From positions 1-60,724 of the forward strand of contig JAUCBJ010007414.1 in the NCBI GenBank assembly GCA_032718475.1: a DNA stretch of 60,724 nt. Reading direction: 5' to 3'. The notes beneath the pieces were generated by a model, which saw only the letters and a list, made by a program, of their open reading frames with translations, searched no databases and was not told the DNA's origin. The first letter of the stretch is position 1, and each line of letters opens with the position of its first letter. This stretch comes from Nemertoderma westbladi. Lineage: Eukaryota > Animalia > Xenacoelomorpha. This document shows positions 23,941 through 59,998 of the stretch, piece by piece. A program made the position numbers and the translations under genes.

Positions 23941-24122
23941 TCTATGAAGCACAGAGGTACGCTGTAGTTAGTACTGTAGTACGCTACAGACTGACAGAAC
24001 TAACTGCTGTACCGGTACTTTATTCAGTATTAACCCGTTAAACGCTACCGTATTAAATACGATTAATCCTAAACACAATAATTCCGATACTGATACTAAC
24101 TCATAAACTGACTATTTTAATA

Positions 24123-27119
24123 ATGCCAAAGTCGTATACTAGCAGTACCGGTACTAGTCAAGGAAAACTGGTACGAAATTCCGCTGCTTCCAAACTCTTC
24201 GATGAAGCCGTGGGATTTGATTGGATAACACCGAAGGATTCGACGAGGAGAGAGACTCGCGCGTCATCCAAGTCGCCGGAGAAATCCAGCCAATCATCGA
24301 CGTCTTCCTCGGTGTTTGATTCTCCGGAAAAACAACCGAATGTATTGCCTACTGGCAAAGGGAAGACGGCGCCGACCGCTCCTCGGAACAAACGCAAACT
24401 ATCCGCTGTCAGTCCAATTAAATCGCCCTCAAAGAGGGCGAAAAATTGCGGAAACGACAACGCTAAACAGTCGCGTCTCCAACCCGAAACGTCGGACGCC
24501 AACGAATCCGAATCAGAGATTAAATCATCATCGGCACTTTTCGATGAGATTTTACCGACGACTCGAAAATCGAGTGGGAAGAATAAAACTCCGACGAAAA
24601 TAGATTTAAAAGCAAAAAGAAGAAAACGCACTTATTCATCCACGCTGTTGGAGAATTCAACTTCCGAGACTGGCGCTCTCAGCGTTACCGTTTCTAGAAC
24701 TTCCGGAACTTGTTTTGGTTTCGAGGACGATATCACTACACCCGGTAAACCGAGGAAGAAAGTCGACGAACACAACTACGGAGCCGAGGTTTATGTGTCG
24801 AAACAGAAAGCGGAAGATCATCTGTATCTGCACGCGGTGTACGAAGATGGGGAGCGGAAACGGGATCATTCGTACGCGACGCACTCGGATACCAAACCCA
24901 AGTACTACTGGCGGGAGAAGGGGAAGCCGCACAGCGACCACACGTACGAGTGCGAGGACGGAGTCCCGATAAACCATAACGTCGCCCTGATGGAGTCCAA
25001 CAAACAGTTAACCGAAAAACGGCCCCAACAAACAGACAAACAGCCCCAACAAACGGACAAGCGGCCCCAACAAACAGACAAACTGCCCCAACAAACGGAC
25101 AAACGGCATAAACAAACGGACAAACGTTCTAAATTAGTAAGAGACAAAAAGTTTCAATCCCTAAACGACAACGGGAATAAATCTTTATCGGAACAGTTTA
25201 ACGATTCGAGCGATTATATTGAGGAATCTCTCGATCTCCCCGAGACCACCTCGGTCGGTGTTTACGATTATAGCGACGAATTCACCCCGACTAAAGATCC
25301 CACCGACATCAAGGAACAGCCCAAAACCGGTGGGGAGGCGAAACGACGGATTCTATGTAGCCCGCGGAAGAAGGTCGTCTACAACGCCAAATCGTGGCTC
25401 TCGGTGGACGGCGACTCCCCGGAGGAACCGAGGACCCCGGTTCAACGCCGACTCGTCGCGGTTCCCCCGAGGACCCCGGTTCAACCCCGTCTCGACGCTG
25501 TACCCCCCACCCCCGTTATATCCAACACGACTCACGAACTCCGCGAACTGGGTGAGTCCCAGAAACTCAAAGAGGACCTCAGCTACCTGTTGGAAGGCTT
25601 GCAGCCGAGACACGCGCTCGCCACACGGGTGCTCAGCGCGGTGAGCTTCGCGACTCGGTGCTGCGACCGCCGCTTCCGTCTGCACCTCCGGGCCCGCGGG
25701 TGTCTCCCCCGGGTTATCGTGGCGCTGCGGGACTCCCCCCGCTACCAGTGTATGTCTCTGTGCGCGGCCGCCGTCCTCTTTCTGCTCGTCCAGGAGGGCA
25801 GCGTTGACCCGGAAGTGGACGTGCGAACCCTCGCCTTGCTGCTGCAACTCGCGCGGGTGCGACAGCGGTGGACCGGCCTGGAGGACGCCGGATCCACCCA
25901 GTCCGGTAAGGCCCACATGCGGATGGGTCAGCTGTTTAAGGGTATCCTCCTCGGGGATGGACTCATGTTGCTAGGGAACCCCAGCGTGGAGTCTGCCAGC
26001 GTCCGCGTGGGGGATCTAGCGATGGAGGCGGCGCTCACCATGGGGCTACTCAGCGGCTCAGAGTGGTTCAAAGAGAGACTCAGAACGTTCGGGGGGATCC
26101 CCCTTCTAGTCGACTACGTCCAGCAGTGGGCCGACGTGGTCCTCGACGCTGATTGGTCCGACAGCCGCGGCGACCTCGATCGGGCGCTACTGTGCTGCAC
26201 CAAGGGTCTATGCGTGGTCGTCACGGTGACCGAGGGGAACATCGCCAATATTACCGCCCTGTTGGAGTACGGCGAGCTGATTGGTCGGTTGGCTCAGCTG
26301 GCGGGTCGCTGTCACACCGCGTTGCTAGACGACAACCAATCAAAGGGCGATAAAACCTTAGATTCTAATGAATCGCCGCAGATTAATAAAGCGTTCGGTG
26401 ACTCAACGACTCAAAGTAAAGTCTTCAGTTGTCTCCAAGCAGTTCTTAAGACTTTGGTTCATTTATCCTACGACGATAACGAGTTAGGGACTCACAGCAC
26501 TCTGGTTGGTCAGCAAGCCGACCTGATTGGTCTGCTGATAGACTGCGTCCTCCGTCTCCCTACAAGCATTCCTTGGGTTGAACGTCACGACGTTATGGTC
26601 CTCGGGTTGGTCCTACTGATCAACCTCGTCATCCACAGCCCCGCCAACCGCGCCCAGGTCCTCCAACCAGAGGAGACGCAACCCGGTTGTGACGTCATCG
26701 TCTCCTTGACGACCCTGTACGAGCGGTACACGGGTTTGGCGGCGGAGGCGGAATCCGAGACGATTTCCGCGATTCGGAGCACCAAGGAGCGGATGTTGCT
26801 GAAGTCGCAACGCACCGCGGACAACCGGGTTACCGAGAGCATTAAGGCGGCGTTACGGAGCGCGCAGAAGACCGCGGACTCCCACCTCGAGAACTCCATG
26901 GTAGCCGCATACACCGCGCTCCTATTGGGTTGTCTAGTTCAGAACGACTCAGACTATATAGACCTGTTGAAGTCCAGTCTCCCGGGTAACAGTCTCTCCG
27001 GGATGGTGGAACGCTTACAATGGTACGTGGAATACTTTGAGTCGACTTTTAAGGACGATTACGATGTTATCGCTAATGTAGGTAAGGTTATTCGAACTTT
27101 ACAACATTATATTCAATGA
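24123..27119 (+). CDS. WAPL: Wings apart-like (WAPL) cohesin release factor homologue, intronless, 998 aa
   Basis: ELGESQKLKEDLSYLLEGL..RVLSAVSFATRC..FRLHLRARG, FKERLRTFGG, LGLVLLINLV and HLENSMVAAYTALLLGCL correspond to conserved WAPL-domain blocks; S/K-rich N-terminus with an FGF motif (24714-24722); AATAAA at 27166. Confidence 0.92.
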   Translation: MPKSYTSSTGTSQGKLVRNSAASKLFDEAVGFDWITPKDSTRRETRASSKSPEKSSQSSTSSSVFDSPEKQPNVLPTGKGKTAPTAPRNKRKLSAVSPIKSPSKRAKNCGNDNAKQSRLQPETSDANESESEIKSSSALFDEILPTTRKSSGKNKTPTKIDLKAKRRKRTYSSTLLENSTSETGALSVTVSRTSGTCFGFEDDITTPGKPRKKVDEHNYGAEVYVSKQKAEDHLYLHAVYEDGERKRDHSYATHSDTKPKYYWREKGKPHSDHTYECEDGVPINHNVALMESNKQLTEKRPQQTDKQPQQTDKRPQQTDKLPQQTDKRHKQTDKRSKLVRDKKFQSLNDNGNKSLSEQFNDSSDYIEESLDLPETTSVGVYDYSDEFTPTKDPTDIKEQPKTGGEAKRRILCSPRKKVVYNAKSWLSVDGDSPEEPRTPVQRRLVAVPPRTPVQPRLDAVPPTPVISNTTHELRELGESQKLKEDLSYLLEGLQPRHALATRVLSAVSFATRCCDRRFRLHLRARGCLPRVIVALRDSPRYQCMSLCAAAVLFLLVQEGSVDPEVDVRTLALLLQLARVRQRWTGLEDAGSTQSGKAHMRMGQLFKGILLGDGLMLLGNPSVESASVRVGDLAMEAALTMGLLSGSEWFKERLRTFGGIPLLVDYVQQWADVVLDADWSDSRGDLDRALLCCTKGLCVVVTVTEGNIANITALLEYGELIGRLAQLAGRCHTALLDDNQSKGDKTLDSNESPQINKAFGDSTTQSKVFSCLQAVLKTLVHLSYDDNELGTHSTLVGQQADLIGLLIDCVLRLPTSIPWVERHDVMVLGLVLLINLVIHSPANRAQVLQPEETQPGCDVIVSLTTLYERYTGLAAEAESETISAIRSTKERMLLKSQRTADNRVTESIKAALRSAQKTADSHLENSMVAAYTALLLGCLVQNDSDYIDLLKSSLPGNSLSGMVERLQWYVEYFESTFKDDYDVIANVGKVIRTLQHYIQ
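25018..25126 (+). repeat. 21-bp coding repeat (QTDKxPQ, about 5 copies) in WAPL
   Basis: CCCCAACAAAC(A/G)GACAA units. Confidence 0.9.
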
Positions 27120-38375: not shown

Positions 38376-39350
38376 TCATTTACATATTTCCATAATGAAC
38401 TTCAGATACACAAATGTTTACTAAGTTTGGACCCATCTCTTCATCGTTCAGCTCTTATTTATTATTACTTAATTTCAATTTCATGTATTGCAGATTTATT
38501 ATATAACTTATTGACTTCTTAAATATCTTTTAACGACTTCTTTAACTTTTAGCGTTAACCACGTCATTCACATTTAATAGTACAGTCTAAACCGCGGTAA
38601 AATGAGTTTCCTCATCAGATAGAAAATTGAAACAATGAATTATTGTAAACTGAAACTAATTATTTATTGTAGAAAGAAATATGGTGAATAAAGTTTAACT
38701 GCGTTCTGTTGTAGGATATGTATGCCTACTAACAACAGCATTATTCGTGTAGGCCATAAATAGAAAAGGCCTCAAAATATTCTGATACTCAAGCTGTAAC
38801 CCATTTACATACTTAGGTACAGTAGGCTACCGAGGCTGATACAGAAGCATTAGACTGAAATACTGTTTCAGCTTTATTCAGATTGGATCTGTGAACTATT
38901 TAGTGGAATCCACCAGATCTAATCGTTATTGTGCCATTGCAAAAAGTAACAGTAACAGATTGCCATTGCCAGTCTCAAGTCCGATATGAAAATCCAAATA
39001 AAGAAGGTCATGAGGCAGGTCTGGAGCAATAGGCTGCAAGCGGAGAGCCAAAAGCTCGATATAGTCTTATGAGGAATAAATAATGCAGCCTATTTAACGT
39101 AACTTAGCAAACTTAAATAAACACCAAAGTAAAACCTCATAAGATAGCATTTTATCAAACCCCTTTTGTTAAGTAGGCACTCTTCTTTGATCTTTTTTAG
39201 GTCGATTTTAAAAGGATTTTTCCAGGAGAATGGCGAAAGCTAGAACGATTCTGTTTGCGCGATCTTATAGATGTCCCGAGCGCGCACAGCAGAGAAATAT
39301 TTGGCAAAAATCTGTTAATTAATTAATTAGTAATTAGCGATTAAAGATTT

Positions 39351-40532
39351 TGTAAAAGCTTTTGCGGATATACTCAGTCCCCCTCGCCCGCAAGGTACCG
39401 TTATAGGTGTTTTAACGGACATAAAAGTCATTCTTCTATATGCGTGCTTTGGCGGACATGGTAAGGCAAAAAACCTGCAATGCACCAAATACCCTGGCAC
39501 AGCTTAGCCTTGATGATTCAGATTACGACATCTAACAGCTGGTTGCTGACATGGAAACGGCCATTGGACACATGGTTCTTTGTTTAGCTTAACAGCCAAT
39601 CAGAGCGATTTTTTCTGTCGATGTGGAGATATTTGGCCGATCGTGCTAGGAGTGTTCGGTCTTACTGTTTTTCTTGATACTGTTGTGTTGTTTCTATCTA
39701 GGCCAGGAACACCGGCTCTAGAGTCAATTCGTTTTTCATACTTTAGAAGAAACATTAGTAGGCTTAAATTATAGAGCGTATAACTGTTATCAGTGCAACT
39801 CCGTTCAGTCTTGCATTATCGGTTCAACATACATTATTATACTGCTATTTACTGTTGTCATATTTTGTATCAGTTGGTTGAATATTATTTGGAGAACATC
39901 TATAAAGAACCCAAATTTCCCAATTTTCTTGATACACTACAGGTTAGAGAGACGGGTTATATATAGCGATTGCGACTTATATTATTGTGGTTTGTAGTGA
40001 ATTTAATGCTATTTGATAAGTACTACATGAGTCAGTTGCTGTTCTCTTTATATATGATAAAATTCATTGACGGTCGGCAAATTAGTGAGCAGTATTGTGT
40101 GTTACCGGTAGTGTGCATGATTGTGGCTGATAACTAAGCATTTCCTAAAGAATGCGCCTCATACGTGAATCATAAGCCTTACAGACTTACCGTTGTGTTT
40201 AGTACAAGTCATATCTCTGTTTACCTAGATAGAGCGCCACGTCCTAAAGGAACTGTTAATATTTCCCGAAAGTGAATAATATTAGTCAGAAATTATTTAT
40301 TAACGATCAATCGAATAATACAGTAAGCTTACACTGCAATAATAATCTAAGCCCTCAGAATCCAGTCTCCCGGGTATATCCAGCGGGTGAATGGACGCGC
40401 ACTAGGCTGGCTTCTGCTAATGTTGTGTTTATTGGTATTAAATATTTGTCAACTTCTAAAGTCTATTTATAAACCAAAAAACATATAAATTTTGGCAGGT
40501 TAAACTGCTAAAGGTCTTCAAAAGCGCGTACA
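39351..40532 (+). repeat. 5' LTR
   Basis: About 8 substitutions versus 52051-53232 by manual comparison; imperfect 14-bp terminal IR TGTAnnnGCTTTTG. Confidence 0.98.
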
Positions 40533-40574
40533 ATAACAGTTATTGTCTTTATTGCAGTAAGCAATAAAGTTGAA

Positions 40575-40727
40575 AGTACCGGTCGACCGGTAAACCTGAA
40601 CCGGTACTTCTGTAGGTCAGTAGGCCCAACTGCCAGAACCGGTACTGCTGTAGGTCCGTAGGTCCAACTGCCAGAACCGGTACTTCTGTAGGTCCGTAGG
40701 CCCAACTGTCCTAACCGGTACTTCCAG
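40575..40727 (+). repeat. About 38-bp tandem repeat in the BEL leader
   Basis: AACCGGTACTTCTGTAGGTCCGTAGGCCCAACTGCCAG, 3 to 4 copies. Confidence 0.9.
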
Positions 40728-40956
40728 TATAAGTACATTAGTATTATTCGATTTTGATTATTGTATACCGGTAGGTCTTAGTATTTAATCAGGGACTGCA
40801 GCCCTGGTTTTTTATTGAGATTTTACTTATTTCTGTCGGTTTTATTTACATGTAAGTTAATATTGAGCTGAAGACGTGTAAGTCTGCTCAGATTGCTCAG
40901 ATAACTGTAGGCCGGACTGTTGTCGGATTGTTGTTGGGTTTGGAGGAATTGCGGCG

Positions 40957-41420
40957 TATGTAGAGTTTGTCTGATAAAGTGCCAGTTAGTAAGTTGGGGC
41001 AGCCATAGCTGTAAGGTCAATCCCCTCTTAAAGAATAAGCCGTACTACCGTGTTAGAACGCATACTAACTAACCATTTTGGAATCTGCACATACTGTAGT
41101 TTATTTAGGCTTGACAGTATTCTGCCAACGTTTTGGCCTGTGTTTGTTTGTGTGGTCTGTTCAGGTACCGTAATAGTTATTACTCAGATATTTTGTAGGC
41201 TGGATTGTTGTCTAGCTATTATTAGGTCTGAAGAGATTGCTGCATGTGTAGAGTTTGTCTGATAAAGTGCCAGTTAGTAAGTTGGGGCAGCCATAGCTGT
41301 AAGGTCAATCCCCTCTTAAAGAATAAGTCGTACTACCGTGTTAGAACGCATACTAACTAACCATTTCGGAATCTACACATACTGTAGTTTATTTAGGCTT
41401 GATGGTAGTCTGCCAGCGTT
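40957..41420 (+). repeat. Direct repeat with about 287-bp spacing in the BEL leader
   Basis: TGTAGAGTTTGTCTGATAAAGTGCCAG...TTTATTTAGGCTTGA occurs near 40959 and 41246. Confidence 0.9.
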
Positions 41421-42765
41421 TGGTTTGTATTTTATTTGAGTATTCTGTACGGGTAGCGTACTATTTATTATTCAGAGTTTATGCGATTATTCGCAACATT
41501 CATGTCCCCAAGTTTATTCCTACAGTAATTGTGCTTGTTACACATACCGTTATAGTTAAATTAACCCCGGTACTACACAGGCTGCTTGGCGTAGGAAAAG
41601 ACTGGTGACTTTGTGCTTCGGTCACTCCAGCAGATGCCGTGGTTCTTTTAACTGTTCAAGTATATTTAACTACTAATTATTGTTGTACCAGTACTTGTAC
41701 CTAATTTAGGGTTTAGTGTACAGTGCTTTCCGAAGGTAATTAGCGTGTAGGCAGTATATTTGTGTTGTAAAGTGGTTAATAGGCACGTTGGATCTGGTAG
41801 TCCGCGGTAATTAACTTCCAGGTAGGAACACTCCGTGATACATAACGTAGTACCTATAGCGATATGGCTATAGGTCGTCAGGCGGTGGTATTTTTCCTAT
41901 CTGGACAGTGCAATATATTTACTACTACTTATTATTTTCAAATACCGTAGTACCCTGTCCGTTGTAATAACCAGAATTCTAACCCTTTGTTAGGCTGGTT
42001 TGTAGACTTCCTGTGAAATTACCCTAAAAATTTCGTACGTAATATTTTGTTGTGTTTAATTAGAGATTTAATCTCACCCGTATCGTAAGTAATTTGTAGT
42101 ATTAAGTAACTTAGGTAAATTAGAATTATCTGTTTTAGTGTCCAATAAATAGCACTTCACTGAGAGCGCACAGCTTCTGTGTAGTGACCCCCAGAAATAA
42201 TAACATTTATTTCAAATATTGACAAAACCCTTTTAAACGGGTATATAAATATTATAAATCAACTCAAACGATTTATAAATAGTAGGCCTGCCATACAACA
42301 ACTAGGTCTCAATATCAGTTGGACTACTGCTTAAATAACGGTAATAAAGTAAGTTAAAGTAACCAAGTAACCCTAAAATATTCAGAAATTCAATTATTCT
42401 AAAATAATTGACATACCGGTATTTACCATAGGCTTATTATATTTATTTCTATAAATTTGGGCTGAAATCATACCGGTATTCTGTAATTAATTCTAGTTCA
42501 TAATTATACTTATATATACTATAAGTGTAAGCTGTATACCGGTATTCACGATAGGCCTATTATATATTTATATATATTTGTGCTAAATTTATATACCGGT
42601 ACTCTGTGACAAAACTAGTTTACAATACTTATATATATTATAAGTGTATACCGATATTCTAATATACTGTAATAAATTAACGGTACTAGGCCAACGGTCA
42701 TACTGAATTACTAGACTTGCTTTAACTGTAACTATAGCAGTAGGCATTCAACCGTATAGCTAAAC

Positions 42766-45700
42766 ATGTCTGACACCCAGCAAAACCTGTCAGACAGTCT
42801 AATCGATACAACCATCTGTGACACAGATAGGAGTGTGGAGCGATTAAGAAAGGAGTTCAGCTCACCTCCTACTGAACGAAAGGTCATCCCTCCAGTAGTA
42901 GTATCAGACCCTAAGCTAATCCAACACCGTAGGTCTATCATCGGCACTCGGGCCCAAGTCAAACGGAACCAGGAAGCAGCTGTCCAACAGCAGCAACATC
43001 CTAGTCAAGAAACTTGTTCCCAGCGATCCGATAGCTCCAGTAGTTCGGATACTGTAGAGCTGACCCCCGAACGCGGAGTGCAGATGGCGGCTACAGCCTA
43101 CTCGGATCCCCTTCTCACCCTTCCTGCCGCAGTGCTAACTACTATATTGATTGCGGTGGAGGAACATCAAGCCGATTGGGCGAGAAGTAAGCGAGCGACC
43201 CAAGATAGTTATGCGGGATACGCCAGCGAAGAATTGATGTCTATTGTCGAGTCACAATGGAACTTTCCCGGACCCGGACTCCTGTTAGATTTGTCCGAAG
43301 CTACTTGGGAAGATATACACAGGATGGGAGTGGCTAAAGATACTATGGATCCAGCTGTTTGGAAGAGGTCGGCAGCAGGATATGTGCAGGGATTCTTCGG
43401 CTCCTTAGAGCGATTGGAAGAACAATTGTTTCGACAACCCCAAGGACCTCAAGAGCAGGAAGAGCTGCTTTATCAAGTACGCGGAAGAACCCTACGTATT
43501 AGACTAATCCTATCAGCCTTTGAGGAAACTTCCAAAAGAAGACAGGACACGTCGCTGCAGGTTGCTGTCAAGACTTGGTTCCAGCGGGTAGGTCTCAAAG
43601 TTCAAGAAACGGACCAGTGGAAATCCCAGCTGGCTGAGAGACCAACCTATGAAGAACCAACCGATGCCACCCTTTCTCAAATGGAAAGCGAAGAGACACC
43701 AGCAGAGCAGCCGCCCTCGAGAGACGCCATAGACATCTATCTGTCAGACTATCAACGATTCCTAGGAGACGAAGAGTTGAGGAGACGACAGTCTGGACTT
43801 CGCCCTAATAGTGAAGGAACCAAGCTTGTGTTGGACGCAATCGATGCGGAAATGTTAGCTGCAAACCAAGCAAAATTTGATGAAAAACTCCGCCTCGCTA
43901 GAGTCCAAGAAGAACAAGTAAAGAAAAAATGGATAGAGGACCGAAAGGCAGCAGCAGTAACGGCGGCAGAAGCAGAAGCAGCAAAGGCAGCAGCAGCGGC
44001 AGAAGCAGAAGCAGCAAAGGCAGCGGCAGCGGCAGCAGCAGAAGCAGCAAAGACAGCAGCAGCAGCAGAAGCAGAAAGAAAGGCAGCGGTGGCAGAAGCA
44101 GAACTGAGAGCGTCTGAGGAGACTACCCAACTAGAGTTGGAAAATCTGCAAGAGACGCAAGACAACATAAATAAACAGTTAACTGCTAGTCACATGCAGA
44201 TGATGAGAAGATCTACTCCCAAACGCCAGGGATATACATCATCGGAGGAAAGCGAAACCACCGATCCTGAAGGCGGAGGAAATAGATCTCGTCTAAGCAG
44301 GCGTAGAAAAACATCTTACCGTCACAAATTGCCTGATTTGCCCCCAGCTGTTAGAAGACAACTAGCTAGCACAGACGTAAGTAGTATAGAACCTACAGAC
44401 CAAATTATTAAGGTCAAAAAACTCCCTACTATAGTTGATGAGCCTGAAATAATTAGGCCTGTCGTTCCCAAAGTCACTCCTGTGCTAGAGACCCCTGTAC
44501 TTCCAGAGCTTAACTCTAAATTCCCTTTACACAGTACTACACTGCCTGTACCCGGTAGAACAGTCCATGAGAATATCCCTGCCCTGGAAGCTGAGAGAGA
44601 AATCAAAGATTTGTCTCCTGTCGTCCCGCGTCAGCCCGCTACAATGTTGGCGACTCCCGCTTCGGCGGTCGAGTGGGTAGAGGAGGGACGGCGGGGGATG
44701 AATCTCCTGCTCGGACAGATGCAGGAGACTGTCCACCAACTTATGGGAACAGTAAGGGAAGGTAGGGCCGAATTGCAAGAAGTGCAGCAAAGTATCGCGC
44801 TAGAACGCGACAAATTAGTCAATATCCAAAAAGGTATACCAATACCCCCTGTAAAATTGTGTCAACCTGTTAGGTCTGAAGTATTACATGCGCAAGGTGT
44901 GGAGCCTACACGCATCTATACTGCTAGTGAAGTAGAAACTCCTATAGCAAACCCTATTAAGAGTGATTATAGACCTGTTGTTAATGATATTCCCTATAGA
45001 CCTGATAATGATCCGAGAAATTTATATACCGATAATTCGATATTAAATAACACGATGGCCCAAGAAAGCTTTACGCGTCAGATGGCTAGAATAGAAGCCC
45101 GCCAAGCGGTCAAAGTGGGAGAGATCGTTAAATTCAATGGAGATGAGATGAAATGGTTACCTTTCAACGAATATTACAAAGACAGCATACAGAACTCTGT
45201 GCTATCTAACGGAGAGAAACTTAGGTTCCTCATCAAGTGCTTGGAAGGACCTCCCAAGTTAATGGCATTAAAGTTTATTGGACATCCAGAAGGATTAAGA
45301 CAAGTTTGGGATACATTAAACATCAGGTATGGTAACAAGGATAACATAGCTAAGTATTTGTATGCAAAATTAGTAGCCCCCCGAAACTTCCTTAGTAGCG
45401 GGATTATAGAGTTTTCCGATGAGATTCAGGAGATCTGTAGACAATTGGACTGGTTAGGTAAGTCCCATGAATATCAGAGTTCCATGGTTATTGGAGCCGT
45501 AGTCTCTACTTTACCAAAGGGTGGAGTATGTACACGCTGGGACAAGAAAGTGTTGTATATGAATGAGCAGCAACGACGAAGCCCTACCATGGCTGATCTC
45601 ATGTCCTTCTTAGATGGTGAAGTAAAACTACAACTCATCAAGCAGTCCAGAGAGAAAACATCGGAAAATAAGGTAAGTGAGAAACCCGCTTCTAGACACC

Positions 45701-45804
45701 GGTGTGTTACACTGACGACGGCGAAAGCCAAGCTTCTCAAGAAGAGGACAGCGGGAAAGACACTGATCGAGCTTACTACGTTGGTAAAACCTCAAAAGAC
45801 GTAA
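42766..45804 (+). CDS. gag: BEL gag, N-terminal 1012 aa
   Basis: KFNGDEMKWLPF...LSNGEKLRFLIKCLEG is a BEL capsid-like (DUF1759-type) block; long N-terminal extension with an Ala/Glu/Lys repeat. Confidence 0.88.
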   Translation: MSDTQQNLSDSLIDTTICDTDRSVERLRKEFSSPPTERKVIPPVVVSDPKLIQHRRSIIGTRAQVKRNQEAAVQQQQHPSQETCSQRSDSSSSSDTVELTPERGVQMAATAYSDPLLTLPAAVLTTILIAVEEHQADWARSKRATQDSYAGYASEELMSIVESQWNFPGPGLLLDLSEATWEDIHRMGVAKDTMDPAVWKRSAAGYVQGFFGSLERLEEQLFRQPQGPQEQEELLYQVRGRTLRIRLILSAFEETSKRRQDTSLQVAVKTWFQRVGLKVQETDQWKSQLAERPTYEEPTDATLSQMESEETPAEQPPSRDAIDIYLSDYQRFLGDEELRRRQSGLRPNSEGTKLVLDAIDAEMLAANQAKFDEKLRLARVQEEQVKKKWIEDRKAAAVTAAEAEAAKAAAAAEAEAAKAAAAAAAEAAKTAAAAEAERKAAVAEAELRASEETTQLELENLQETQDNINKQLTASHMQMMRRSTPKRQGYTSSEESETTDPEGGGNRSRLSRRRKTSYRHKLPDLPPAVRRQLASTDVSSIEPTDQIIKVKKLPTIVDEPEIIRPVVPKVTPVLETPVLPELNSKFPLHSTTLPVPGRTVHENIPALEAEREIKDLSPVVPRQPATMLATPASAVEWVEEGRRGMNLLLGQMQETVHQLMGTVREGRAELQEVQQSIALERDKLVNIQKGIPIPPVKLCQPVRSEVLHAQGVEPTRIYTASEVETPIANPIKSDYRPVVNDIPYRPDNDPRNLYTDNSILNNTMAQESFTRQMARIEARQAVKVGEIVKFNGDEMKWLPFNEYYKDSIQNSVLSNGEKLRFLIKCLEGPPKLMALKFIGHPEGLRQVWDTLNIRYGNKDNIAKYLYAKLVAPRNFLSSGIIEFSDEIQEICRQLDWLGKSHEYQSSMVIGAVVSTLPKGGVCTRWDKKVLYMNEQQRRSPTMADLMSFLDGEVKLQLIKQSREKTSENKVSEKPASRHRCVTLTTAKAKLLKKRTAGKTLIELTTLVKPQKT

Positions 45805-48800
45805 GTAAATACAAGGCTCGAACCAACGATAGGAGAGAACAGGTTGCCAAGACCCCTCCTCAGTCTCCTAACAGAATGCACGGAAGAAAACCCGAAGAAA
45901 GAACGAGAGTGCATCAGGTTACCCAAGGTAAAGTGAGTAACATAAAACCTAACTGTGCGCTGTGCGACGGGACCCACCGTTTGAGTGCGTGTGCTGAATT
46001 TCTAAAGAAATCCCTTATAGACAGACGTGCAGTCGTGTGGGATAAGCGGTTATGCTATAATTGCCTCAGACCAGGACACCAACGGCGAACCTGTTACTCC
46101 GACGTAAAGTGTGCAAAGTGTAGCGCGAAACATCACATCTTGTTACACAGTGAGTTCGAACGAGACAACCCGAGTAAGGTAAGTGAGCTCGAACTACATG
46201 TCCAATTCAGTGATGTAAACGACACTGATCAAGAATCTGAGATGGAAGGATTCTATACTGACGAATTCTCCGACGCCAACGAATCCTGTTATCTAATCAA
46301 TACCGCGGTGTATCGAGCACTTACTTATGAAAAGGACACCGAAAATGAGTTACCCCCAACTACTTTTGCCAGACAACCATCTTGGAAAGCTCCAACTTCC
46401 AACGTAGGAATCAGAGAATTTCCTGTAGTGCAGGTAAGAGTTCACGGTCCTAACAAAAGTTACATAGTGAACGCACTCCTTGACTCCGGCAGCACAGGAA
46501 CATTCATCGATCAAGAACTAGCCGAAGATATCTTTGCTGGACAACCCAAATTCCGGACTAAATTGAATATGTCAGGAATTATGCAGGTTTGGAAATCGAC
46601 CCTAACGGCAGACTACTATGTAGGTGTGTTGTCCACCCCCCAGGATAAATTAGGAGCACAAGGTATAAGGTCGGTAAAAATGGTGGCTATAAAGAACTTC
46701 GCTACTACTCAAGCAGACCTTTATAATTGGGACGAGGATGAGAGCATCCAATATCTTAAGATACCTCGATTCCAGACAGATTATCCTGGAGTGCAAATAC
46801 TCATCGGCCAAAACGCGCATGAGGCGCTCGAGACATTGGAGAAACGGCCTACTCAACCGCAGCCACTGCAAACCTATGCGGTAAGAACCAGAGTAGGTTG
46901 GTACTTTACTGGCCCTTCTCGCAGAACTCTCGAAGAGAGAATGCCACAAGAACGAATATACCAAGTAAACGATGGGGAAGTGGAGAGCAGTGAGGTGGAC
47001 GAACTAACCGAAGGAACACCATACTCCTCAGATAATGATGACATCTACCAACTCTTCGATGAAGAGAACACAATCGACCTACTTACAGAAAACAAAACGT
47101 GGAAAAACCAGGTGAACCTATGCCAACTGATTCGCCCATCGGGACCCATTGATTACAATGACGAACTAAATGACGAGATAGAGCGCTGCAACGCTAGAAC
47201 TCAGGACGAACTCGCCGTACGATTCTTTACTCAAGAACTGGTAGAGCCCAATTCATACGATAAGGCCCTATCGATAGAAGAAGAAAGAGCCAAGCAAATC
47301 CAGGAAACAACTACACGTTTTTTAAAGGACCAAGGTAGATATGAAATCTTCCTACCATTTCGAAAACGAGAACCTAGATTTATAAATAACAGACCCTTGG
47401 CAGAGAAAAGAATCGCTCAATTACATCGACGCCTTACGGCTAATGCTTCAGCTAAAGAAATGTACCAAACTCAGTTGAAGAAATTTATAACAAAGGGATA
47501 CGCGGAGTGAGTACCGGAAGGAACACCAGTGACTGAGAGAACGTATTACTTAACACATCATTACGTTCCCAAACCCGGTAAACCCCACGAAGTACGAGTC
47601 GTATTCGATGGCTCCGCTCTATATATGGGCCAATCCCTCAATTCCGAGTTGTTACCAGGACCCAACTTACTCCAATCTTTGTTGGGAATACTTTTAAGAT
47701 TAAGACAATATTCCATCGCGTTCGCCTCCGATATAGAAGGAATGTTCTTACAAGTCAAGGCGCTGGATAGAGATAGAGACAGCCTGAGATTTCTGTGGTG
47801 GCCTGAAGGATATCTCAACCAGAAACCGGAGGAGTACTGGATGACCATCCAGGCTTTTGGGATCATATCTAGCCCTTCCAATGCCTGCTCCGTGGTGCGG
47901 ACCACTGCGAATGACAACCGAGACGCCTTCTCAAAAGAGGTGATAGACAACATCAAGCGTAATATATACATGGACGATAATTTAAGGTCCCTTCCATCAG
48001 TAGAAGAAGCCATTGATGTCGCGAAAGGAACGGTAGAGTGTTTGAAAAGAGGTGGATTTCGACTGACGAAATTCACCAGCAACTCCCGTGAGTTTCTGGA
48101 AGCGATACCGGTAGAAGACCGAGGAACGAAAGACCTAGACTTAATAAAGGATGATCTTCCAGAAACCAAGACGCTTGGCTTGAAGTGGGACACTGAAAGA
48201 GACATCCTGTTTTTTCAGTTAAAACAGCGAGATAATCCAGTTCGGACAAAACGGATTTGTTTAAGTATCCTGAGCACTTATTTCGACCCATTGGGATTTA
48301 TTTGCCCAGTTATATTGATTGCTCGGAGTTTAGTACAACAAATGTGGCTTGAAAACCACTCATGGGACGATCCGCTTAAGGGAGAACTGTTAAAGAAATG
48401 GATGAAATGGGAAGATTCTCTACCTGCCATCGAGAACTTTATAATTTCCCGTGCATATTTTGGTCATGTTCTTCCTACGTATTCCTATCAACTCCATGTG
48501 TTTGGAGACGCCAGCAACATGGGAATAGGTATAGTAGCATATCTGCGAGTCGAAACTCCGGAGGGAATCAAAGTCACCTTGGTTACCTCTAAGGCATTGA
48601 TTAACAACAAGTTAAAGGTTCCTCGAGCGGAGTTAAAGGCGGCTTTATACGCTACAGCCATCGGCCGGAACGTAACAGAACAAATCGACTATCCACTGGA
48701 GAAAACGGTTTATTGGACCGACGCTTTACTCGTGTTGGAGTATCTAACCAATGAAGTCTGTCAGTTCAGCGTTTTTGTTACTAACAGGGTAGCTATTATT

Positions 48801-50851
48801 CTTAGTCGCACAAAGATAGATCAATGGAGACATTGCCCTGGTACGATTAATCCAACCGATATCGCCTCCCGGGGAGCAACTCCACAGGAACTGATAGGTA
48901 CTCCAGACTGGTTGGGTGGACCCGACTTCCTGAGCAAGGAAGAGGATGAATGGCCTCCTCACCTTACTACGGCGGAGATTAGACAAGCCAAGGGAGCGGA
49001 GACAGTCAAACCTAAAACCCGGGCGAGTAAATCGAAGTTATTTAAACCGACTATCGATCTATCTGTATTACATACTTCCAGGAATGATGCTTCGGATCCA
49101 CAATCCCTCAACACAAATAAGTCTGTTGTGGAAATTAGAGATAGAGACTGGAAATCTGGAATACCTGACATCTCGCAAGGAATCTCACCCCTGCTGCAGA
49201 GAGCAATGCATCACTACAGTTCCTGGAATCGGCTCTGTAAACCGTCACGTATTTAAGGAGATGTTTTCATCATCACTACTCCAGGACGAAGACCATTAGT
49301 GATACCGCTCCATTGACATCTGCGCAAGTTCATGTTATTAAAAATTTACCCAAATATAAAACATCCGACCGGTTTCTAAAGGAGAAAATTAGTCACCAGG
49401 AGCATGAAGAAACAAATAAGCAGATACTGAGACTCCTGCAATGCTATGAGGATTCCGATAAGTATTTCCTGTTGTTGAGAAATCCGCAGATGCGCTTACG
49501 GGATCGCTTCTCTAGCACAATGATAGATGGGTTAATACGTGTTGGAGGAAGGCTCACCAATGCGCCATTATCCTTTGACACTAAATTCCCCATACTCATT
49601 AGAAATCTTGAAGTACAAATCAAGATGATTGTAGATGTTCACAGCAAACTTTACCATGCTGGTAGAGAACGAGTTCTTAGCGAAATTCGAACTCGCTATT
49701 ATTTTGATAAACCCCGTAGAGCTCTGAACCAAGTTCTTAGGAACTGCATACCCTGTAGGAAAGCATTCAGTTGGCCTTTAACACAGCGAAAGGCAGAATT
49801 ACCTAGGGAACGAGTAAGCTTCTATGAACCACCTTTTACTAATACTGGTGTAGATTTATTTGGCCCTATTGAAGTATATCGTGCTAGGACTATAGTCAAG
49901 AGATGGTGTGTCATCTTCGTATGCATGACTTGTAGAGCCATCCATCTCGATATGGTGAACGATCTATCTACCAACAGCTTCGTCTTAAGTTTACGCCGAC
50001 AGATCGCTCGCTTCGGGACGAGTAATACCATGAGATCGGATAAGGGAACGAACTTCATTGGTGCCAACAACGAAATACAGGCTTACGTGAAGGACTGGAA
50101 CCAAAGACAGGTGGACGATCAGCTAAGGATAACAGCGTCTAGCTGGACCTTCAACGCCGCCGACGCCCCTTGGTGGGGAGGAAGTTGGGAGAGATTAATT
50201 AGAAGTGTCAAGACCGCATTTCACTTTATAGTGCCATGCCGCGCGTATCTCACCGACGAACTTTTGCGGACATTAATGGAGGAAATAGCTGCCTATCTCA
50301 ACGAGAGACCGCTTATGCCAGTCTCATTGAGTCCCGATTCCCTGGAAGCGCTAACACCCGCGCACTTCCTACTGAAGAAACCTGTAGCCATGCTCCCACG
50401 ATCGGAGATTGCCGACGGAGACGAATACTGCCGTCGAACTTGGCAAAGTATGCAGTTGCTATCCCGTTGTTTCACTGACCATTTCGAGAAACATTATCTG
50501 CCCACGCTACAACTTCGAACTAAGTGGTTTGCGCAGCAAGAAAACGTCAGCGCCGGAGATATGGTGCTTATTGTAGATCCAGACCTCCCACGTAAACGGT
50601 GGCAGACAGGTCGTATCATCGAGACTCACATCTCGGATGATGGTTTAGTACGCTCGGTAGAACTCGTTGTCATGCGGCGTAACTTCAAGAAGCCAGGCAT
50701 AATCTTTGAGACGCAACAACTCAATCGCCCAGTTGGTCGTTTATGTTTACTGGAAAGAGACAGAGAACTCTCCGGAAACTATGGAAGGCAAGACACTCTT
50801 CCCACGACCACCTCCCTAATTCCTCAAACATCTAGGGACTCCCCAACGTGA
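45702..50851 (+). pseudogene. pol: BEL zinc knuckles plus pol (PR, RT, RNase H, IN), interrupted
   Basis: CALC..H..C, CYNC..GH..C, CAKC..HH; LLDSGS; YMDD; VFGDAS; HHCC plus VDLFG / SDKG / WERL. In-frame TGA at 47508-47510 and a 1-nt deletion near 49240. Confidence 0.93.
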
Positions 50852-51078
50852 TACGTCTGGAGTGACTATATGACTATATTATTTTATCTATTTTATTGTA
50901 TTTTATATGTGAACATTATTTGTTGTATTGAACATTATATGTGAACAGTTATGACAACGATTACATCCTAGAATAGTATCAAGGTCCACAGTGTCTCACT
51001 GCGTACGATTATCACCATGCCAACTATGTTTCTCGGCAACGTTGTCGGTTATGCGCATCGAGAGACCATGCTACGCCC

Positions 51079-51972
51079 ATGGACACAAACGTCCGCTGTT
51101 CCTATTTCCACGAACAACCGGCGATGGAAATTTATTGCGCGTATTGCAGACTCAATAACTTGCACATTTTTGCGGTTTGCCCTCAATTTATGACTCAATG
51201 TCACCATTGTCAACTAAAGGGACACGCCAGTTTCGATTGCCCTTTTAATCGCGATTTGGAAAGCGTAGATGAAATGATCACACTACGTTACATCAGAGCT
51301 TGGGAAGCGAACGCTGATTTATATTGTGATTTGCGCCATCGCTATTATCCTGGACGCGCTTACGAAGGAGTTTATGCGTTCCATCCTTACCTATTCGCTT
51401 CTGTCGAACAGAAATCACGCATATCGAGTTACGAACTACTGAAGCACGTCGGAGAATGTATTTCAACCAAGTTCGTACGCAAATTTCTTAGGAGTGTTAA
51501 TCCTAGCGACCTTCATTCCTATAACTTAATCAATTATATCCGTCAGGACCCAGACTATGGAGACTTATTTGTTAACTCACACCCCGAGTTACAGGAAGTA
51601 TATCGATGGCCTTACGAATACCGAGCCCGCGAATGCGAGTTGGAAAGAACCATTAAACCCAGGAAGTTTCTGACTGCCTATGGTCCACCCACGGCTCTCG
51701 TTCAGACCACTCGTAAAGGACCCGTAAGAGCGGCTGTCTTAAAACGCGCTCTCAAAGCCGTTAGACCCCTCTCCCCCGACGTTGATGTCAATCAACCCGG
51801 CACTTCGACTGGCGGATACACCGACCATAATCCTACACCCTCTGATGCAATTATATTGCACCCTTCACCCAGGAGTTATAGCCCTCCTTGTAAGGTGGCT
51901 CGCCCCAAAGAGAAAAGGACTCTGGCCAGCTTTAAAAAACTGCGTAAACGCCGTCCGCGCAAGAAAGGCTAA
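51079..51972 (+). CDS. Accessory ORF of the BEL element, 297 aa, two CCHC knuckles and a basic tail
   Basis: Intact ATG ORF between IN and the 3' LTR; CAYC-x5-H-x4-C and CHHC-x4-H-x4-C; KKLRKRRPRKKG. Confidence 0.75.
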   Translation: MDTNVRCSYFHEQPAMEIYCAYCRLNNLHIFAVCPQFMTQCHHCQLKGHASFDCPFNRDLESVDEMITLRYIRAWEANADLYCDLRHRYYPGRAYEGVYAFHPYLFASVEQKSRISSYELLKHVGECISTKFVRKFLRSVNPSDLHSYNLINYIRQDPDYGDLFVNSHPELQEVYRWPYEYRARECELERTIKPRKFLTAYGPPTALVQTTRKGPVRAAVLKRALKAVRPLSPDVDVNQPGTSTGGYTDHNPTPSDAIILHPSPRSYSPPCKVARPKEKRTLASFKKLRKRRPRKKG

Positions 51973-52050
51973 CTGTTTAGAGTATTTACATATATTAGAA
52001 ACTGTGATTTTTGTATATTTATAAACTTGAATCCCATTTTCTGGGAGCGG

Positions 52051-53232
52051 TGTAAAAGCTTTTGCGGATATACTCAGTCCCCCTCGCCCGCAAGGTACCG
52101 TTATAGGTGTTTTAACGGACATAAAAGTCATTCTTCTATATGCGTGCTTTGGCGGACATGGTAAGGCAAAAAACCCGCAATGCACCAAATACCCTGGCAC
52201 AGCTTAGCCTTGATGATTCAGATTACGACATCTAACAGCTGGTTGCTGACATGGAAACGGCCATTGGACACATGGTTCTTTGTTTAGCTTAACAGCCAAT
52301 CAGAGCGATTTTTTCTGTCGATGTGGAGATATTTGGCCGATCGTGCTAGGAGTGTTCGGTCTTACTGTTTTTCTTGATACTGTTGTGTTGTTTCTATTTA
52401 GGCCAGGAACACCGGCTCTAGAGTCAATTCGTTTTTCATACTTTAGAAGAAACATTAGTAGGCTTAAATTATAGAGCGTATAACTGTTATCGGTGCAACT
52501 CCGTTCAGTCTTGCATTATCGGTTCAACATACATTATTATACTGCTATTTACTGTTGTCATATTTTGTATCAGTTGGTTGAATATTATTTGGAGAACATC
52601 TATAAAGAACCCAAATTTCCCAATTTTCTTGATACACTACAGGTTAGAGAGACGGGTTATATATAGCGATTGCGACTTATATTATTGTGGTTTGTAGTGA
52701 ATTTAAGGCTATTTGATAAGCACTACATGAGTCAGTTGCTGTTCTCTTTATATATGATAAAATTCATTGACGGTTGGCAAATTAGTGAGCAGTATTGTGT
52801 GTTACCGGTAGTGTGCATGATTGTGGCTGATAACTAAGCATTTCCTAAAGAATGCGCCTCATACGTGAATCATAAGCCTTACAGACTTACCGTTGTGTTT
52901 AGTACAAGTCATATCTCTGTTTACCTAGATAGAGCGCCACGTCCTAAAGGAACTGTTAATATTTCCCGAAAGTGAATAATATTAGTCAGAAATTATTTAT
53001 TAACGATCAATCGAATAATACAGTAAGCTTACACTGCAATAATAATCTAAGCCCTCAGAATCCAGTCTCCCGGGTATATCCAGCGGGTGAATGGACGCGC
53101 ACTAGGCTGGCTTCTGCTAATGTTGTGTTTATTGGTATTTAATATTTGTCAACTTCTAAAGTCTATTTATAAACCAAAAGACATATAAATTTTGGCAGGT
53201 TAAACTGCTAAAGGTCTTCAAAAGCGCGTACA
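52051..53232 (+). repeat. 3' LTR
   Basis: Direct repeat of 39351-40532. Confidence 0.98.
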
Positions 53233-54134
53233 GATTTCTAATTGATATTGCTCGAAGACTATTTGGTTTTTCCCATAGCAACGGTGTTTTTTTAAGGTTC
53301 ATCTCAGTAAGATCTAAAAAATGTTCAATCATCGCTATGGCCCACCTATTACTGTTAATTAGTACTAATTAGCCGAAAACTAATTAGCTTCGTATCTCGA
53401 ATACGCTAAGAGCTATGAAAAAACGTAACATTACAAAGTTGTTCAGAATTTTATTCTGCACAAAAAGTATCTTGGACCGATGCCGCATCTCCTACCGTTA
53501 ATTAGTAATTCACTAATTACTTAATAACCTAATCCAGTGCCTGGGGGCACCCAAATCTTTATAAATTGTTGTATAAATAAATAAATAAATATTAATAAAT
53601 AAAATAAATAAGTCGGCCATGCACTCGCATGGTGCAAATGCTCCATTTGCGCTCTCCAACTGGATGCAGATTGGTACAGCTGAGACAGGAACTGGTGGGA
53701 AAGGAATGAAATTATGTACACCATGACCCGTAATACAGTATAGTATCATAATTTCTGATGACACGGACCCCCCCCCCCCCCCCCCCCAACGTTTTCTACA
53801 AATGTTAATCATATTGCTTGAAATTTGAAACACAACTAGTTCCACCAACGTCGATGTCCACATGAAGCCGGAATTTTCCATTTTGCCTGTAAATTTTTCC
53901 TATAAAAATCTTAAAAAAGTGTCTTTTGCGAAATTGCACATCTCCTATCGTCGCCATTCTTAATATTATTATTATTCTTTTTAATCAATTAAATGTATGT
54001 TTATTCAGCCACATAATATGATACTGATATGCTAACATTAAAATCAATGTACTATAAAATAAACTTAGTAATTTACGAATACACGGCACAGGTATAATAG
54101 TACAAATGTGGGGTGAGTAAAGTAATTAAGCGCA

Positions 54135-54980
54135 CTTTATTTTGTTATAATAATAGTTTTTAGTTCCCCTTTCCCCCCTTAACCACCCCAGATCCCGGTC
54201 CCATCACCGAATCCGAGACCTCGCCACGACCTCCGACCCCCACGGAGGCTGAGCGAACATGACCGAAGTAGTGCAAACTGCAGTCTCCGCCGGACGACAC
54301 CCAAGACACAGGCATAGCCACGGTTTCGCATAGACTCTCGCCTTGCCACCAGTACTTCTGTGAGGTGTGTGATGAGGATTTTGGCCTCGGCACACCAGAC
54401 ACCATCTGTGGTTCCCACCAGTGGTGTGAAGGCCATCCGTCGATCTTCACACACTGGCTGGTAGTGTGTCCTTCTTTTGGCGCGCCCGCTGCTCGAGGAG
54501 GGATTCTGTCGACCGGTTGGTTTGAATGTAGGAGGTAGCGTCAGGGTTAATAACCGCAATGTCGAACGACGCTATCTGCTGATTGGACCATACCCCCCGG
54601 CTGACCAGGTCTGCGCGCACCCCACCCACCACTCCACCCTCCGCGTCCAGATGACCACGAGAGAGAGTGACCTCACGCTCCACACTGGATGCACCGAAGG
54701 CTGAAGCCAGTAGTTCACCGTAGACCTCCCTCAGCTCGTCATGGCGCTTGATGACGAGGCCTCCTGACTTGCAGCTGAGGGCATGCGTAGTAGTGAAGTG
54801 GCCGCCGCAGCCCTCGCATTTGTTGGGGAGACCTGGTGGAACCAAACCATAGCGAAGGGCGAGACTGTCTCGGAACTCATCGGGGATTAAGTCTGTGTGG
54901 TCCACGGCCGATGGTTGGGCTGTGAGTCAGCCACCAGTGTTTTTCGTAATGGCCCGTTCTACAGTTCGACGGCGACGGCG
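54135..54980 (-). mobile_element. CRE-clade (restriction-like endonuclease) LINE 3' fragment
   Basis: FRDSLALRYG, CEGC..HALSC..GG..KRHDE, RADL..RGVW..FDIAVINPDA, RRRLQFALLRS; frameshifted; TAA-rich tail. Confidence 0.85.
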
Positions 54981-55286
54981 ATCAATTAAATTGATATAGT
55001 AAAAATAATTATGCAATAAAATTGATAACAGTCCTATAAAAATATATCAGTCTTTTACAGTCCTGTTCTAAATAACCCGAAAAATTCCAGAATCCTCTGG
55101 TGTTTTGTGGCAAAGTTGATGTCCGTTAGACTATAGCAATTGGAGATGAAGCATGCAACTGCTTTCGTTTCCGTCAACGATATTTGTTATATATTTGTAT
55201 TTGTTTCTTAATCGGTTTTTAAGGTTGCGTTTACAGTAATCGAAAGTTAAAATAGACTCTAAGGCTGGTAGATCGTATTGGTTTCT

Positions 55287-56190
55287 CTGGTGGGGCTGAA
55301 CCAACTTTTTATAAAAGAAAAATGCCCGGCCAAACTGATTTCATTTCTTGGGGCACTTCAACGCCCTGATTCCAAAAATGATATTTTCAAAATCTTTTGC
55401 TGGTGTCTTTTTCTTAAAATTACTAAATAAATTAGTAATACTATTTATAATCGCTGACTTAACCTAAATTACACTACACTGTTTAGGTAAGCTAGTTAAT
55501 GCAATATATCACCATATCACTAAAAATCAGACTTCGACATAAATAACAGACTTAGGGAATATGCTTATTTGAACCGCAATGGTCGAATTAGTAGTTGTAG
55601 ACTCCATCAAAACAATAGTAGTATAAAAAAATTGATATTTTTTGTGATATTGTGATATATTGATATTGAATTGCTGAAGTTATGTGCTCATTTATGTGAT
55701 CGCGCTCACATTTTGACCGATATCTCGAGAAGCAATAACTCGACCATTGTTTTGATGGGGGTCTACCCCCACTAAATCGACCATTGCGGTTCGAATGATA
55801 CTAATATCAATGCAATAGCAGTACGGTAAATTGATAATCACTACAATTGAATATATTAGCCAGTTTGCTAATATAATATTAATATTATTTTATATTTAAT
55901 TTATTTAATTACTCTAAAAGACACCGACGAAATATTATAAAATTAACAGATTCGAAATCAGGTTGATTGAAATTCTCGATAAATGCTATAATTTGGTCTG
56001 GGTATTTTTTATAATATATATAAATAGCATTATAGTATTACTAATTTATTTAGAAAATTTAAGAAAAAGACACCAGCAAAAGATTTTGAAAATATCAGGG
56101 TCGGAACCAGGGTGTTGAAGTATACCAAAAAATGAAATCAGTTAGTTTGGGGAATTTTATTTTATAAAACATTGGTTCAGCCCCACCGTG
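55287..56190. mobile_element. MITE with TIRs of about 160 bp (CACGGTGGGG end, Transib-like)
   Basis: 55289-55445 inverted versus 56032-56188; inner inverted pair 55570-55618 / 55745-55795. Confidence 0.7.
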
Positions 56191-56670
56191 ACTTTGAGCT
56201 TTTTGGTAAGTATTTGCAGCTTCCTACTGGAAAGATCACTACTGAAATCAGTTTCCATAAGAATCCTGAGAAAGGTTTGTAGAAGTAAGTTTGGACTAGT
56301 TTTGACCCGAAGTATGCACTTTAAGCAAGATCTGAATGACTTACAACTTATATCACCAGTGTGAAAAAGTTCGTAGAGAACTGAATTCTGAACATAGTTC
56401 CCAACATGAAGCAAACCCCGCAAAATTTTCCTATAGAACGCATCCATCAACTTCAATTTTGTGTTGAAGAGTGAATGATTCAACACTGAAAGTGAGGCTA
56501 TAAAGAATAGAAAGGAGTGCGATACTGTTCCATAAGTGGAGTTACTGTACTAACGGGTAACTTCCGAACTGTCCATCCGCGCCGATGAAACTTAGCAGAA
56601 TGTATTGTTAGAAGGCGAATACAATGGGAGTATAAAAACTGGGGGTTCGGTTGGTGATCTGGTATCCCAA
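56191..56670 (-). mobile_element. Decayed LINE ORF2 fragment
   Basis: MDAFYRKILRGLLHVGNYVQNSVLYELF resembles the post-RT region of LINEs. Confidence 0.5.
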
Positions 56671-58827: not shown

Positions 58828-59998
58828 TGTTCGCGCTTTTAGACCTTTTAGCAGCTAACCTGCCAATTTAAATGTACTTTTAATTATAAATCGACTTTTG
58901 CCCTTACCAATTTGCTGAATAGTACTGAATTTACATCCGCCGAAGCCAGTCCGTGCGCGGCGTATGACCCACTGTGTGGGAGACTGGAGTCGGGTCCAGA
59001 GAAAGTTTATTGCGGTCTAGGCTACTTTGTATTATTCGATTGATCGCTACTATATAATTTCCGACAACTATATTTACTTTCGGGAAATATTAACAGTTCC
59101 TTTAGGACGTGGCGCTTTAAGTATAAAAACAGAGTTATGACTTACACTAATCACAACTAGATGGCTATAGAATCTCGTAAATAGCGCATTCTTCAGGAGA
59201 TGCTTTATTAACCTTCACACTACTTCACACGACTTCACACTACTTCACACTAAGTCACACTAATTTGCCGACCGTCACTGACTTTGATCATATATAAGGA
59301 GGATTGCTACTGACACACGTAGGGATTATGAAATAGCATTTAATTCACACAAAAACCACTATAATTTGAGTCGCAGTTGCTACCGGTAGACCCTTCTGCT
59401 TACCTCAGTAATTAAGAAAGTTGAGGGGTTTACGATTATTTATCGGTATTCTCCAAATATAACATCCATTAACCCTCCAGTTATCTTGCTGTCGTGAAGG
59501 GGTTAATATAAACAGCAATTAACAACAATATAAAACAGCATTAAAACAGTGCGGTGAACAGTCAGTATGTGTTCATGAAGTTCAGTATGATAAGGTGCGG
59601 TTTGTATGTTCGATGCAATGTGCAGTAAGGTTTGATGAGTTAATAGATTTATGTTCTTATAACTCCAGCCATCAGATGTTCTTGGGCCAAAGTCTGAAAC
59701 GTCTGTACTTAGTACTGTACTGAATCCAGAAAGGAATCGGATTCTCAGAAAAACTATAACTGCGCATGCGCCAATTTCCACAGGTAGGTCTCTATTGGCA
59801 TAACTGGGAAGATTGCTCTGATTGGCTGAAATATGCCCAAACAAAGGAACCTCCACGTACACAAAGAATCAGCTGACAGATTTCGTCATCTTGGTTCTAA
59901 TTTCTGACCGACGCATAGTTGAACAATTTTAGGCCTTTTTAGAGTATTCAGCGCATTGCGTAAAAATGACTTGTTATGTCCGCAAAAGCTTTTTTGCA
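58828..59998 (-). mobile_element. LTR of a related BEL family (solo or orphan)
   Basis: Ends match the 39351 LTR (AAAAGCTTTTGCGGA; TGGCAGGTTA..CTGCTAAA..AAAAGCGCG.ACA); similar length; collinear conserved blocks; no TSD. Confidence 0.85.

Follow-up and report, generated by a model that had tools for sequence, protein, structure and literature searches.

The window analyzed here is a 60,724-nt stretch of DNA from Nemertoderma westbladi (assembly GCA_032718475.1, contig JAUCBJ010007414.1), and all coordinates refer to its forward strand. A BEL/Pao element spans positions 39351–53232. Its two LTRs are 1182 bp each, have TG..CA ends, and differ from one another by 8 mismatches (0.7%). The principal features of the element, along with a diverged LTR found elsewhere in the window, are as follows.

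39346–39350, + strand: left TSD, GATTT (sequence)
39351–40532, + strand: 5' LTR, 1182 bp, TG..CA (LTR pair alignment)
42760–45804, + strand: gag-region ORF with DUF1759 (ORF and Pfam)
45696–50851, + strand: remaining gag and pol in three ORFs (45696–47510, 47511–49256, and 49241–50851), with Peptidase_A17, Integrase_H2C2, and DUF5641 (ORF and Pfam)
50977–51972, + strand: additional 331-codon cysteine/histidine-rich ORF upstream of the 3' LTR (ORF; no Pfam match)
52037–52050, + strand: short purine-rich tract before the 3' LTR (sequence)
52051–53232, + strand: 3' LTR, carrying a second copy of the candidate primer 11-mer at 52480–52490 (LTR pair alignment)
53233–53237, + strand: right TSD, GATTT (sequence)
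58828–59998, - strand: diverged sister LTR, 72% alike over its 3' 680 nt (alignment)

The coding region consists of four ORFs and is interrupted by an in-frame stop (47508–47510) and by frame changes near 45700–45800 and 49250; this copy of the element is therefore young but broken. A reading made from the sequence alone (the sequence-only reading) had called the element BEL/Pao, and the Pfam domains agree: DUF1759, Peptidase_A17, Integrase_H2C2, and DUF5641 occur in BEL/Pao order. Homologues with up to 42% identity over the RT/RNase H piece carry PF05380. The element has the LTRs and TSD of this family as well as Pao-type domains, with the integrase after RT and RNase H. Its domains are those of BEL/Pao and not of Ty3/gypsy (chromovirus) elements. 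The ORF between pol and the 3' LTR (50977–51972) yielded weak zinc-knuckle leads only, below 0.9 (Atlas). The 2.2-kb leader (40533–42759) contains a 9-bp hairpin, a 16-nt palindrome near 40578–40593, short repeats, and a 288-nt tandem duplication.

According to the ICTV profile, BEL/Pao elements (Belpaoviridae) have an 18-nt primer-binding site (PBS) for host tRNA-Arg or tRNA-Gly and are primed by host tRNA (PMC8742986). The element resembles the Belpaoviridae in its LTRs, the order of its gag-pol domains, and its purine tract, but the tRNA PBS of the profile (PMC8742986) is missing, with no TGG following the LTR. This is a departure from the family description; the protein-based placement in BEL/Pao stands. 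No tRNA genes or Rfam families were found in the window. The features of the primer-binding position and of its complement in the LTR are the following.

39734–39791, + strand: block common to family copies, with variation from 39792 (contig comparison)
39780–39790, + strand: candidate self-primer, exact PBS complement, overlapping the TATA-like TATAAC at 39779–39784 (sequence)
40530–40546, + strand: 8+1+8 palindrome covering the LTR end and PBS (predicted hairpin -2.1 and self-dimer -15.4 kcal/mol)
40533–40543, + strand: primer-binding position ATAACAGTTAT, without TGG (sequence)
40547–40569, + strand: 9-bp hairpin immediately 3' of the PBS (fold prediction)

The sequence-only reading had described a PBS without TGG, an exact complement of it in the LTR, and a pairing of 11 bp in register with the LTR boundary, and all of these are borne out. 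The sequence ATAACAGTTAT adjoins the 5' LTR's end and occurs once in the window (40533), while its complement ATAACTGTTAT occurs only at 39780 and 52480. The two form exactly 11 Watson-Crick base pairs anchored at PBS +1, over a distance of 742 nt, and the second-best pairing in the LTR with this anchor is 5 bp. When the LTR was dinucleotide-shuffled 20,000 times, the PBS complement turned up in 21 shuffles, a number that rose to 63 of 20,000 when PBS offsets of 0–3 were allowed and to 51 of 20,000 when either orientation was. Throughout the window (sampled every 7 nt, real repeats included), 0.28% of positions have a complement of at least 11 nt in the preceding 1182 nt. The 11-nt self-complementarity is thus real and exceeds chance for one element. 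As in Tf1/sushi-type elements, an LTR segment of ~11 nt is complementary to the PBS and in register with the LTR end. The same reading had cautioned that the 11-mer is AT-rich and near-palindromic; this is correct but understated, as the last ACA of the LTR completes the 8+1+8 palindrome at 40530–40546.

Copies of the element family were sought in public runs. The stretch is partly present in six of the seven runs listed, none of which is on record as RNA. The family is abundant, as thousands of contigs in runs X1 and X3 match the region 39250–41250. Contig depth runs on from the LTR end into the leader in this region, and no PBS variants occur among the 40 of 334 entries listed. In run X4, contigs cover the PBS junction but leave 39652–39852 bare, a gap that was given no weight. 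The layout of variants on 39725–39875, taken from four contig sets (at most three samples), has a sharp edge. All 16 listed substitutions of at least 1% fall at 39792–39819 and none at 39725–39791, in a listing that leaves out variants near contig ends. Among the 12 of 15 indels listed, two lie upstream (39767 and 39776) and ten at 39793–39819. In X1, the summed depth is 118,000 at 39785–90 and drops to 8,900 at 39797–802. Several contigs, including one diverged 345-nt contig, match up to 39791, and at least one loose end begins there. The shared block thereby ends one base past the 11-mer, with variation setting in 2 nt beyond the latter, although the 46 nt upstream of the 11-mer are as invariant as the 11-mer itself. 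Conservation that ends at the 11-mer fits a primer role.

The sister LTR (58828–59998) has no TSD, and no internal sequence or coding remnant of the element was found beside it; for these reasons, the sequence after it may be host flank. At the aligned 11-mer, seven of 11 letters match and four differ. No complement, spliced or unspliced, was found between this LTR and the sequence after it (best 6 bp), and a sister LTR without the pairing counts mildly against self-priming.

Four candidate promoters can be recognized by sequence in the element LTR, which contains no AATAAA. The motifs concerned, and a possible intron, are listed here.

39596–39600, + strand: CCAAT box, also present in the diverged sister LTR (motif)
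39901–39906, + strand: TATAAA named in the sequence-only reading, absent from the sister LTR (motif)
39943–40498, + strand: possible intron, with donor-like and acceptor-like sites that the sister LTR also has (motif)
40049–40086, + strand: rival promoter, TATATA (40049) and initiator-like TTAGT (40082), both kept in the sister LTR (motif)

The TATAAC at 39779–39784 has CATAAA as its aligned counterpart in the sister LTR and is followed 28 nt on by an initiator-like TCAGT (39805). We take the CCAAT box at 39596 to point to an RNA start near 39670; TATAAC and TCAGT would presumably place the start at 39807, and TATATA and TTAGT, on the same assumption, at 40084. A start at 39780, as in Tf1, is possible from the sequence. 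Starts at ~39670 or 39780 would keep the 11-mer in the 5' RNA, whereas starts at 39807 or 40084 would leave it out of the 5' RNA end. The TATAAA at 39901, earlier suggested as a rival start site, is indeed there, but its absence from the sister LTR led us to discount it as a promoter. A block at 40229–40271 is near-identical in both LTR families and lies between acceptor-like and donor-like sites, like a small conserved exon; it contains an 8-nt PBS complement (40251–40258).

In unspliced full-length RNA, the predicted pair probability of the 11-mer and PBS is 0.00–0.06, and the PBS folds on itself. In silico removal of 39943–40498 gave a pair probability of 0.95 with an RNA start at 39780 and of 0.0 with a start at 39670. 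All 29 arbitrary deletions of the same length had the same 0.95 effect (start at 39780), and the gain was therefore rejected as support for an intron at 39943–40498. The same folding method recovers the pairing in just two of the six relatives described below, and these predictions do not decide on the duplex.

Relatives of the element were retrieved as 23 BEL/Pao loci on contigs that are binned into bacterial genomes and that we infer to be host DNA. (Additional searches of bacterial genome groups found host-derived elements in 1 of 63, 3 of 401, 1 of 401, 2 of 25, and 1 of 11 genomes.) Nine of the 23 loci have TGG at most 4 nt from the LTR end, six do not follow that pattern, and eight are unreadable. 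Identity to the RT/RNase H piece of the element is mostly 31–34% for the TGG loci and 37–50% (best segment) for the six others, which are located as follows.

L003: 1–630
L004: 1001–1790
L005: 1001–1880
L006: 4289–4700
L013: 1481–1870
L014: reverse strand

These six are the nearest relatives with a readable primer site, and each has a pairing of 11–12 bp within 2 nt of its LTR end. For L004, L005, and L013 the LTR end follows from the LTR pair, and for L003, L006, and L014 it was assigned by hand after seeing the sequence; L013 also reads TGG starting from its second letter. In all six, the pairing partner is a canonical GT-AG junction, of a GTRAG donor and a YAG acceptor, inside the element's own LTR, and AATAAA occurs within ~40 nt after the acceptor. 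The six PBS sequences all differ, each being matched by its own LTR junction, and the predicted primer and the PBS are 45–153 nt apart in the spliced form. By comparison, the TGG elements tested (six of the nine, leaving out three near-copies of L027) pair with their own LTRs over no more than 6 bp. In a control with mismatched LTRs and PBSs, one of 182 pairs reached 11 bp, this being the AT-rich PBS of the present element with the LTR of L005. In L004, L005, and L014, the donor is ~220 nt past a TATA box, which places the predicted primer ~190 nt inside the RNA.

L004 and L005 are alike at 642 of 778 aligned letters. Their exons end in CAC and TAA, respectively, and the partner places read GTG and TTA; two neighboring letters of the primer thus differ between the loci, as do the two letters opposite them, with the pairing kept. 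As judged from these sequences, the difference is a double compensatory change, that is, one event pair. Compensatory changes among related elements had been proposed as a check on the pairing, and this pair of relatives provides one, while none was seen in the element's own family.

The element joins the six self-complementary relatives on two quick trees of RT/RNase H (SH-aLRT 90 and 95), in which it sits on a long branch, and its grouping with four TGG elements was rejected (p-AU 3e-6). The intron-split layout of these relatives is absent from the element, whose best consensus junction gives 4 bp and whose LTR has no AATAAA. Its 11-mer is instead unsplit and 742 nt from the PBS, as compared with 45–153 nt in the relatives. 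A search with a 20-nt LTR motif returned no viral contigs and two metagenome contigs, both chance matches, and protein scans of viral contigs gave no matches. The BEL/Pao elements L024–L031, L035, and L036, which have a TGG PBS, come from one bacterial genome record; their PBS looks to us like a complement of tRNA-Tyr, which is not among the two tRNAs of the ICTV profile.

Several other explanations bear on these observations. The 11-mer might be part of a promoter, with its TATA-like motif, and its match to the PBS incidental; tRNA-free priming would then proceed through the palindromic PBS, as a hairpin or RNA dimer, or through other element RNA, such as the 8-nt match at 40251–40258. The palindrome at 40530–40546 takes in the LTR end, its self-dimer is predicted at -15.4 kcal/mol as against -10.1 kcal/mol for the primer duplex, and a conserved hairpin site in fungal GalEa, as presented in excerpts of PMC5445492, is a precedent. 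A PBS-to-PBS dimer, however, would need a cut in the genome before it could present a free 3' end at the boundary of the LTR. The alignment of TATAAC with CATAAA in the sister LTR agrees with a promoter, but the region past the motif, where the start would fall, is the most variable part. Similarly, the 8-nt match sits in a block that is identical between the two LTR families, but 20 of the 182 mismatched pairs reach 8 nt. An incidental match would also have to overcome the ~0.1–0.3% chance of 11 bp in register, and we consider this explanation unlikely.

It is improbable that the primer is some host RNA that is not an entire tRNA, whether half of one or a different small RNA, with the LTR match due to chance. 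Several copia lineages are described as having half-tRNA primers without TGG in excerpts of PMC6317226, but a fixed host RNA would not yield six PBS sequences each matching its own LTR junction, and the element groups with those six relatives. Very improbable, in our view, is a spliced primer like the one predicted for them, in which the exon would end with 39780–39785 and splicing would run from a weak donor at 39786 to the acceptor-like site at 40498, giving a 10-bp primer 35 nt from the PBS. This junction does give 10 bp at PBS offset 1, as in L004 and L005, family conservation stops at position +6 of the would-be donor, and the sister LTR retains the acceptor-like site. Against it, the donor GTTATC is far from the GTRAG donors of the six relatives, no AATAAA follows, the sister LTR lacks GT at the aligned place, and the joint is absent from the 15 of 21 joints listed among family contigs.

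We favor the interpretation that the 11-mer at 39780–39790 is the element's own RNA primer, which at this site is somewhat probable from sequence comparison. Self-priming is likely because of the conservation in the family and the pairing and compensatory changes in the relatives, together with the lack of pairing in the more distant TGG elements. Our confidence is good for tRNA-free priming at the level of the clade and fair for self-priming at this particular 11-mer. The tRNA-independent priming proposed in the sequence-only reading therefore gains from the clade placement and from family conservation ending at the 11-mer, but not from compensatory change within the family. In the mechanism we envisage, the transcript would begin at or upstream of 39780, and 39780–39790 would pair with 40533–40543 across 742 nt, a distance perhaps shortened by splicing. 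A cut at the 3' side of the 11-mer, by RNase H if as in Tf1, would free its 3' end, and reverse transcriptase would extend the 11-mer RNA into the LTR end, priming minus-strand DNA. Its relatives are predicted to assemble their primer by splicing; the element would carry such a primer already complete and unsplit. The Tf1-like detail that the 11-mer constitutes the first 11 nt of the RNA does not appear to be needed for self-priming, since the primer predicted for the three relatives that have a clear TATA box is ~190 nt internal and assembled across a splice junction. More broadly, we consider it evenly balanced whether an animal BEL/Pao clade dropped tRNA priming for a primer from its own RNA, usually spliced together ~190 nt inside the transcript. 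The element would then be a derived member of a clade that can switch between splice-dependent and splice-independent priming, with its primer unsplit and far from the PBS.

The BEL/Pao element Cer7 of Caenorhabditis elegans is reported to supply its own primer RNA in the form of a distinct tRNA-like molecule encoded close to the 3' end, unlike the LTR segment of the present element. Self-priming has been described for the Ty3/gypsy elements Tf1 and Tf2 of Schizosaccharomyces pombe and Tj1 of S. japonicus (excerpts of PMC7175516, PMC5341516, and PMC4600332), and is predicted for Tcn1 and copia TAR (excerpts of PMC6317226). As in Tf1/Tf2, Tj1, Tf1/sushi, and Tcn1, the present element has no tRNA PBS and an 11-nt LTR sequence that complements the bases after the 5' LTR (PMC7175516, PMC4600332, and PMC5341516, in the parts available), and the length of the pairing equals that of Tf1 (PMC7175516, likewise in part). 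In Tf1, however, the RNA's first 11 nt serve as the primer, whereas the present element is BEL/Pao and its site lies 742 nt from the PBS; the predicted primer of its relatives differs further in being internal and made across a splice junction. The element thus works like Tf1 at most, without being a Tf1/sushi member. The TAR lineage of plant Ty1/copia elements (Houba and Osr-1) is similar in that self-priming was predicted from sequence alone (excerpts of PMC6317226), and different in its copia domain order and plant hosts. Where a PBS would be expected, fungal GalEa also has a palindrome that takes in the last LTR base(s), but its authors found no LTR complement, according to excerpts of PMC5445492, and the present element has one.

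Neither self-priming nor splice-built primers were reported for BEL/Pao in the full-text literature searched, which excludes Repbase reports, supplements, and most subscription papers. The main texts of PMC3118150 and PMC554778 do not mention PBS or tRNA, and the available portions of PMC3286476 and PMC3601003 have nothing on BEL priming. For BEL/Pao replication, tRNA priming is an assumption of the published description (PMC8742986). If the favored interpretation is true, self-priming occurs in a third LTR superfamily, and the mechanism is either old or has evolved more than once. With an internal primer built by splicing, the start of reverse transcription would be coupled to host splicing, and these elements would escape silencing by tRNA fragments. 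Annotation tools that depend on tRNA matches would miss such primer sites.

Elsewhere in the window, a WAPL-like gene at 24057–27119 has one uninterrupted frame of 1020 codons, with 27–32% identity to its best matches (mostly fish). These matches point to an animal host, and the gene would belong to a fast-evolving, perhaps intron-poor animal or be a retrocopy. A broken LINE-type element with endonuclease and RT domains is located at 10532–13718, and nested inverted repeats of 120–260 nt, resembling DNA transposons, occupy 53717–57302.
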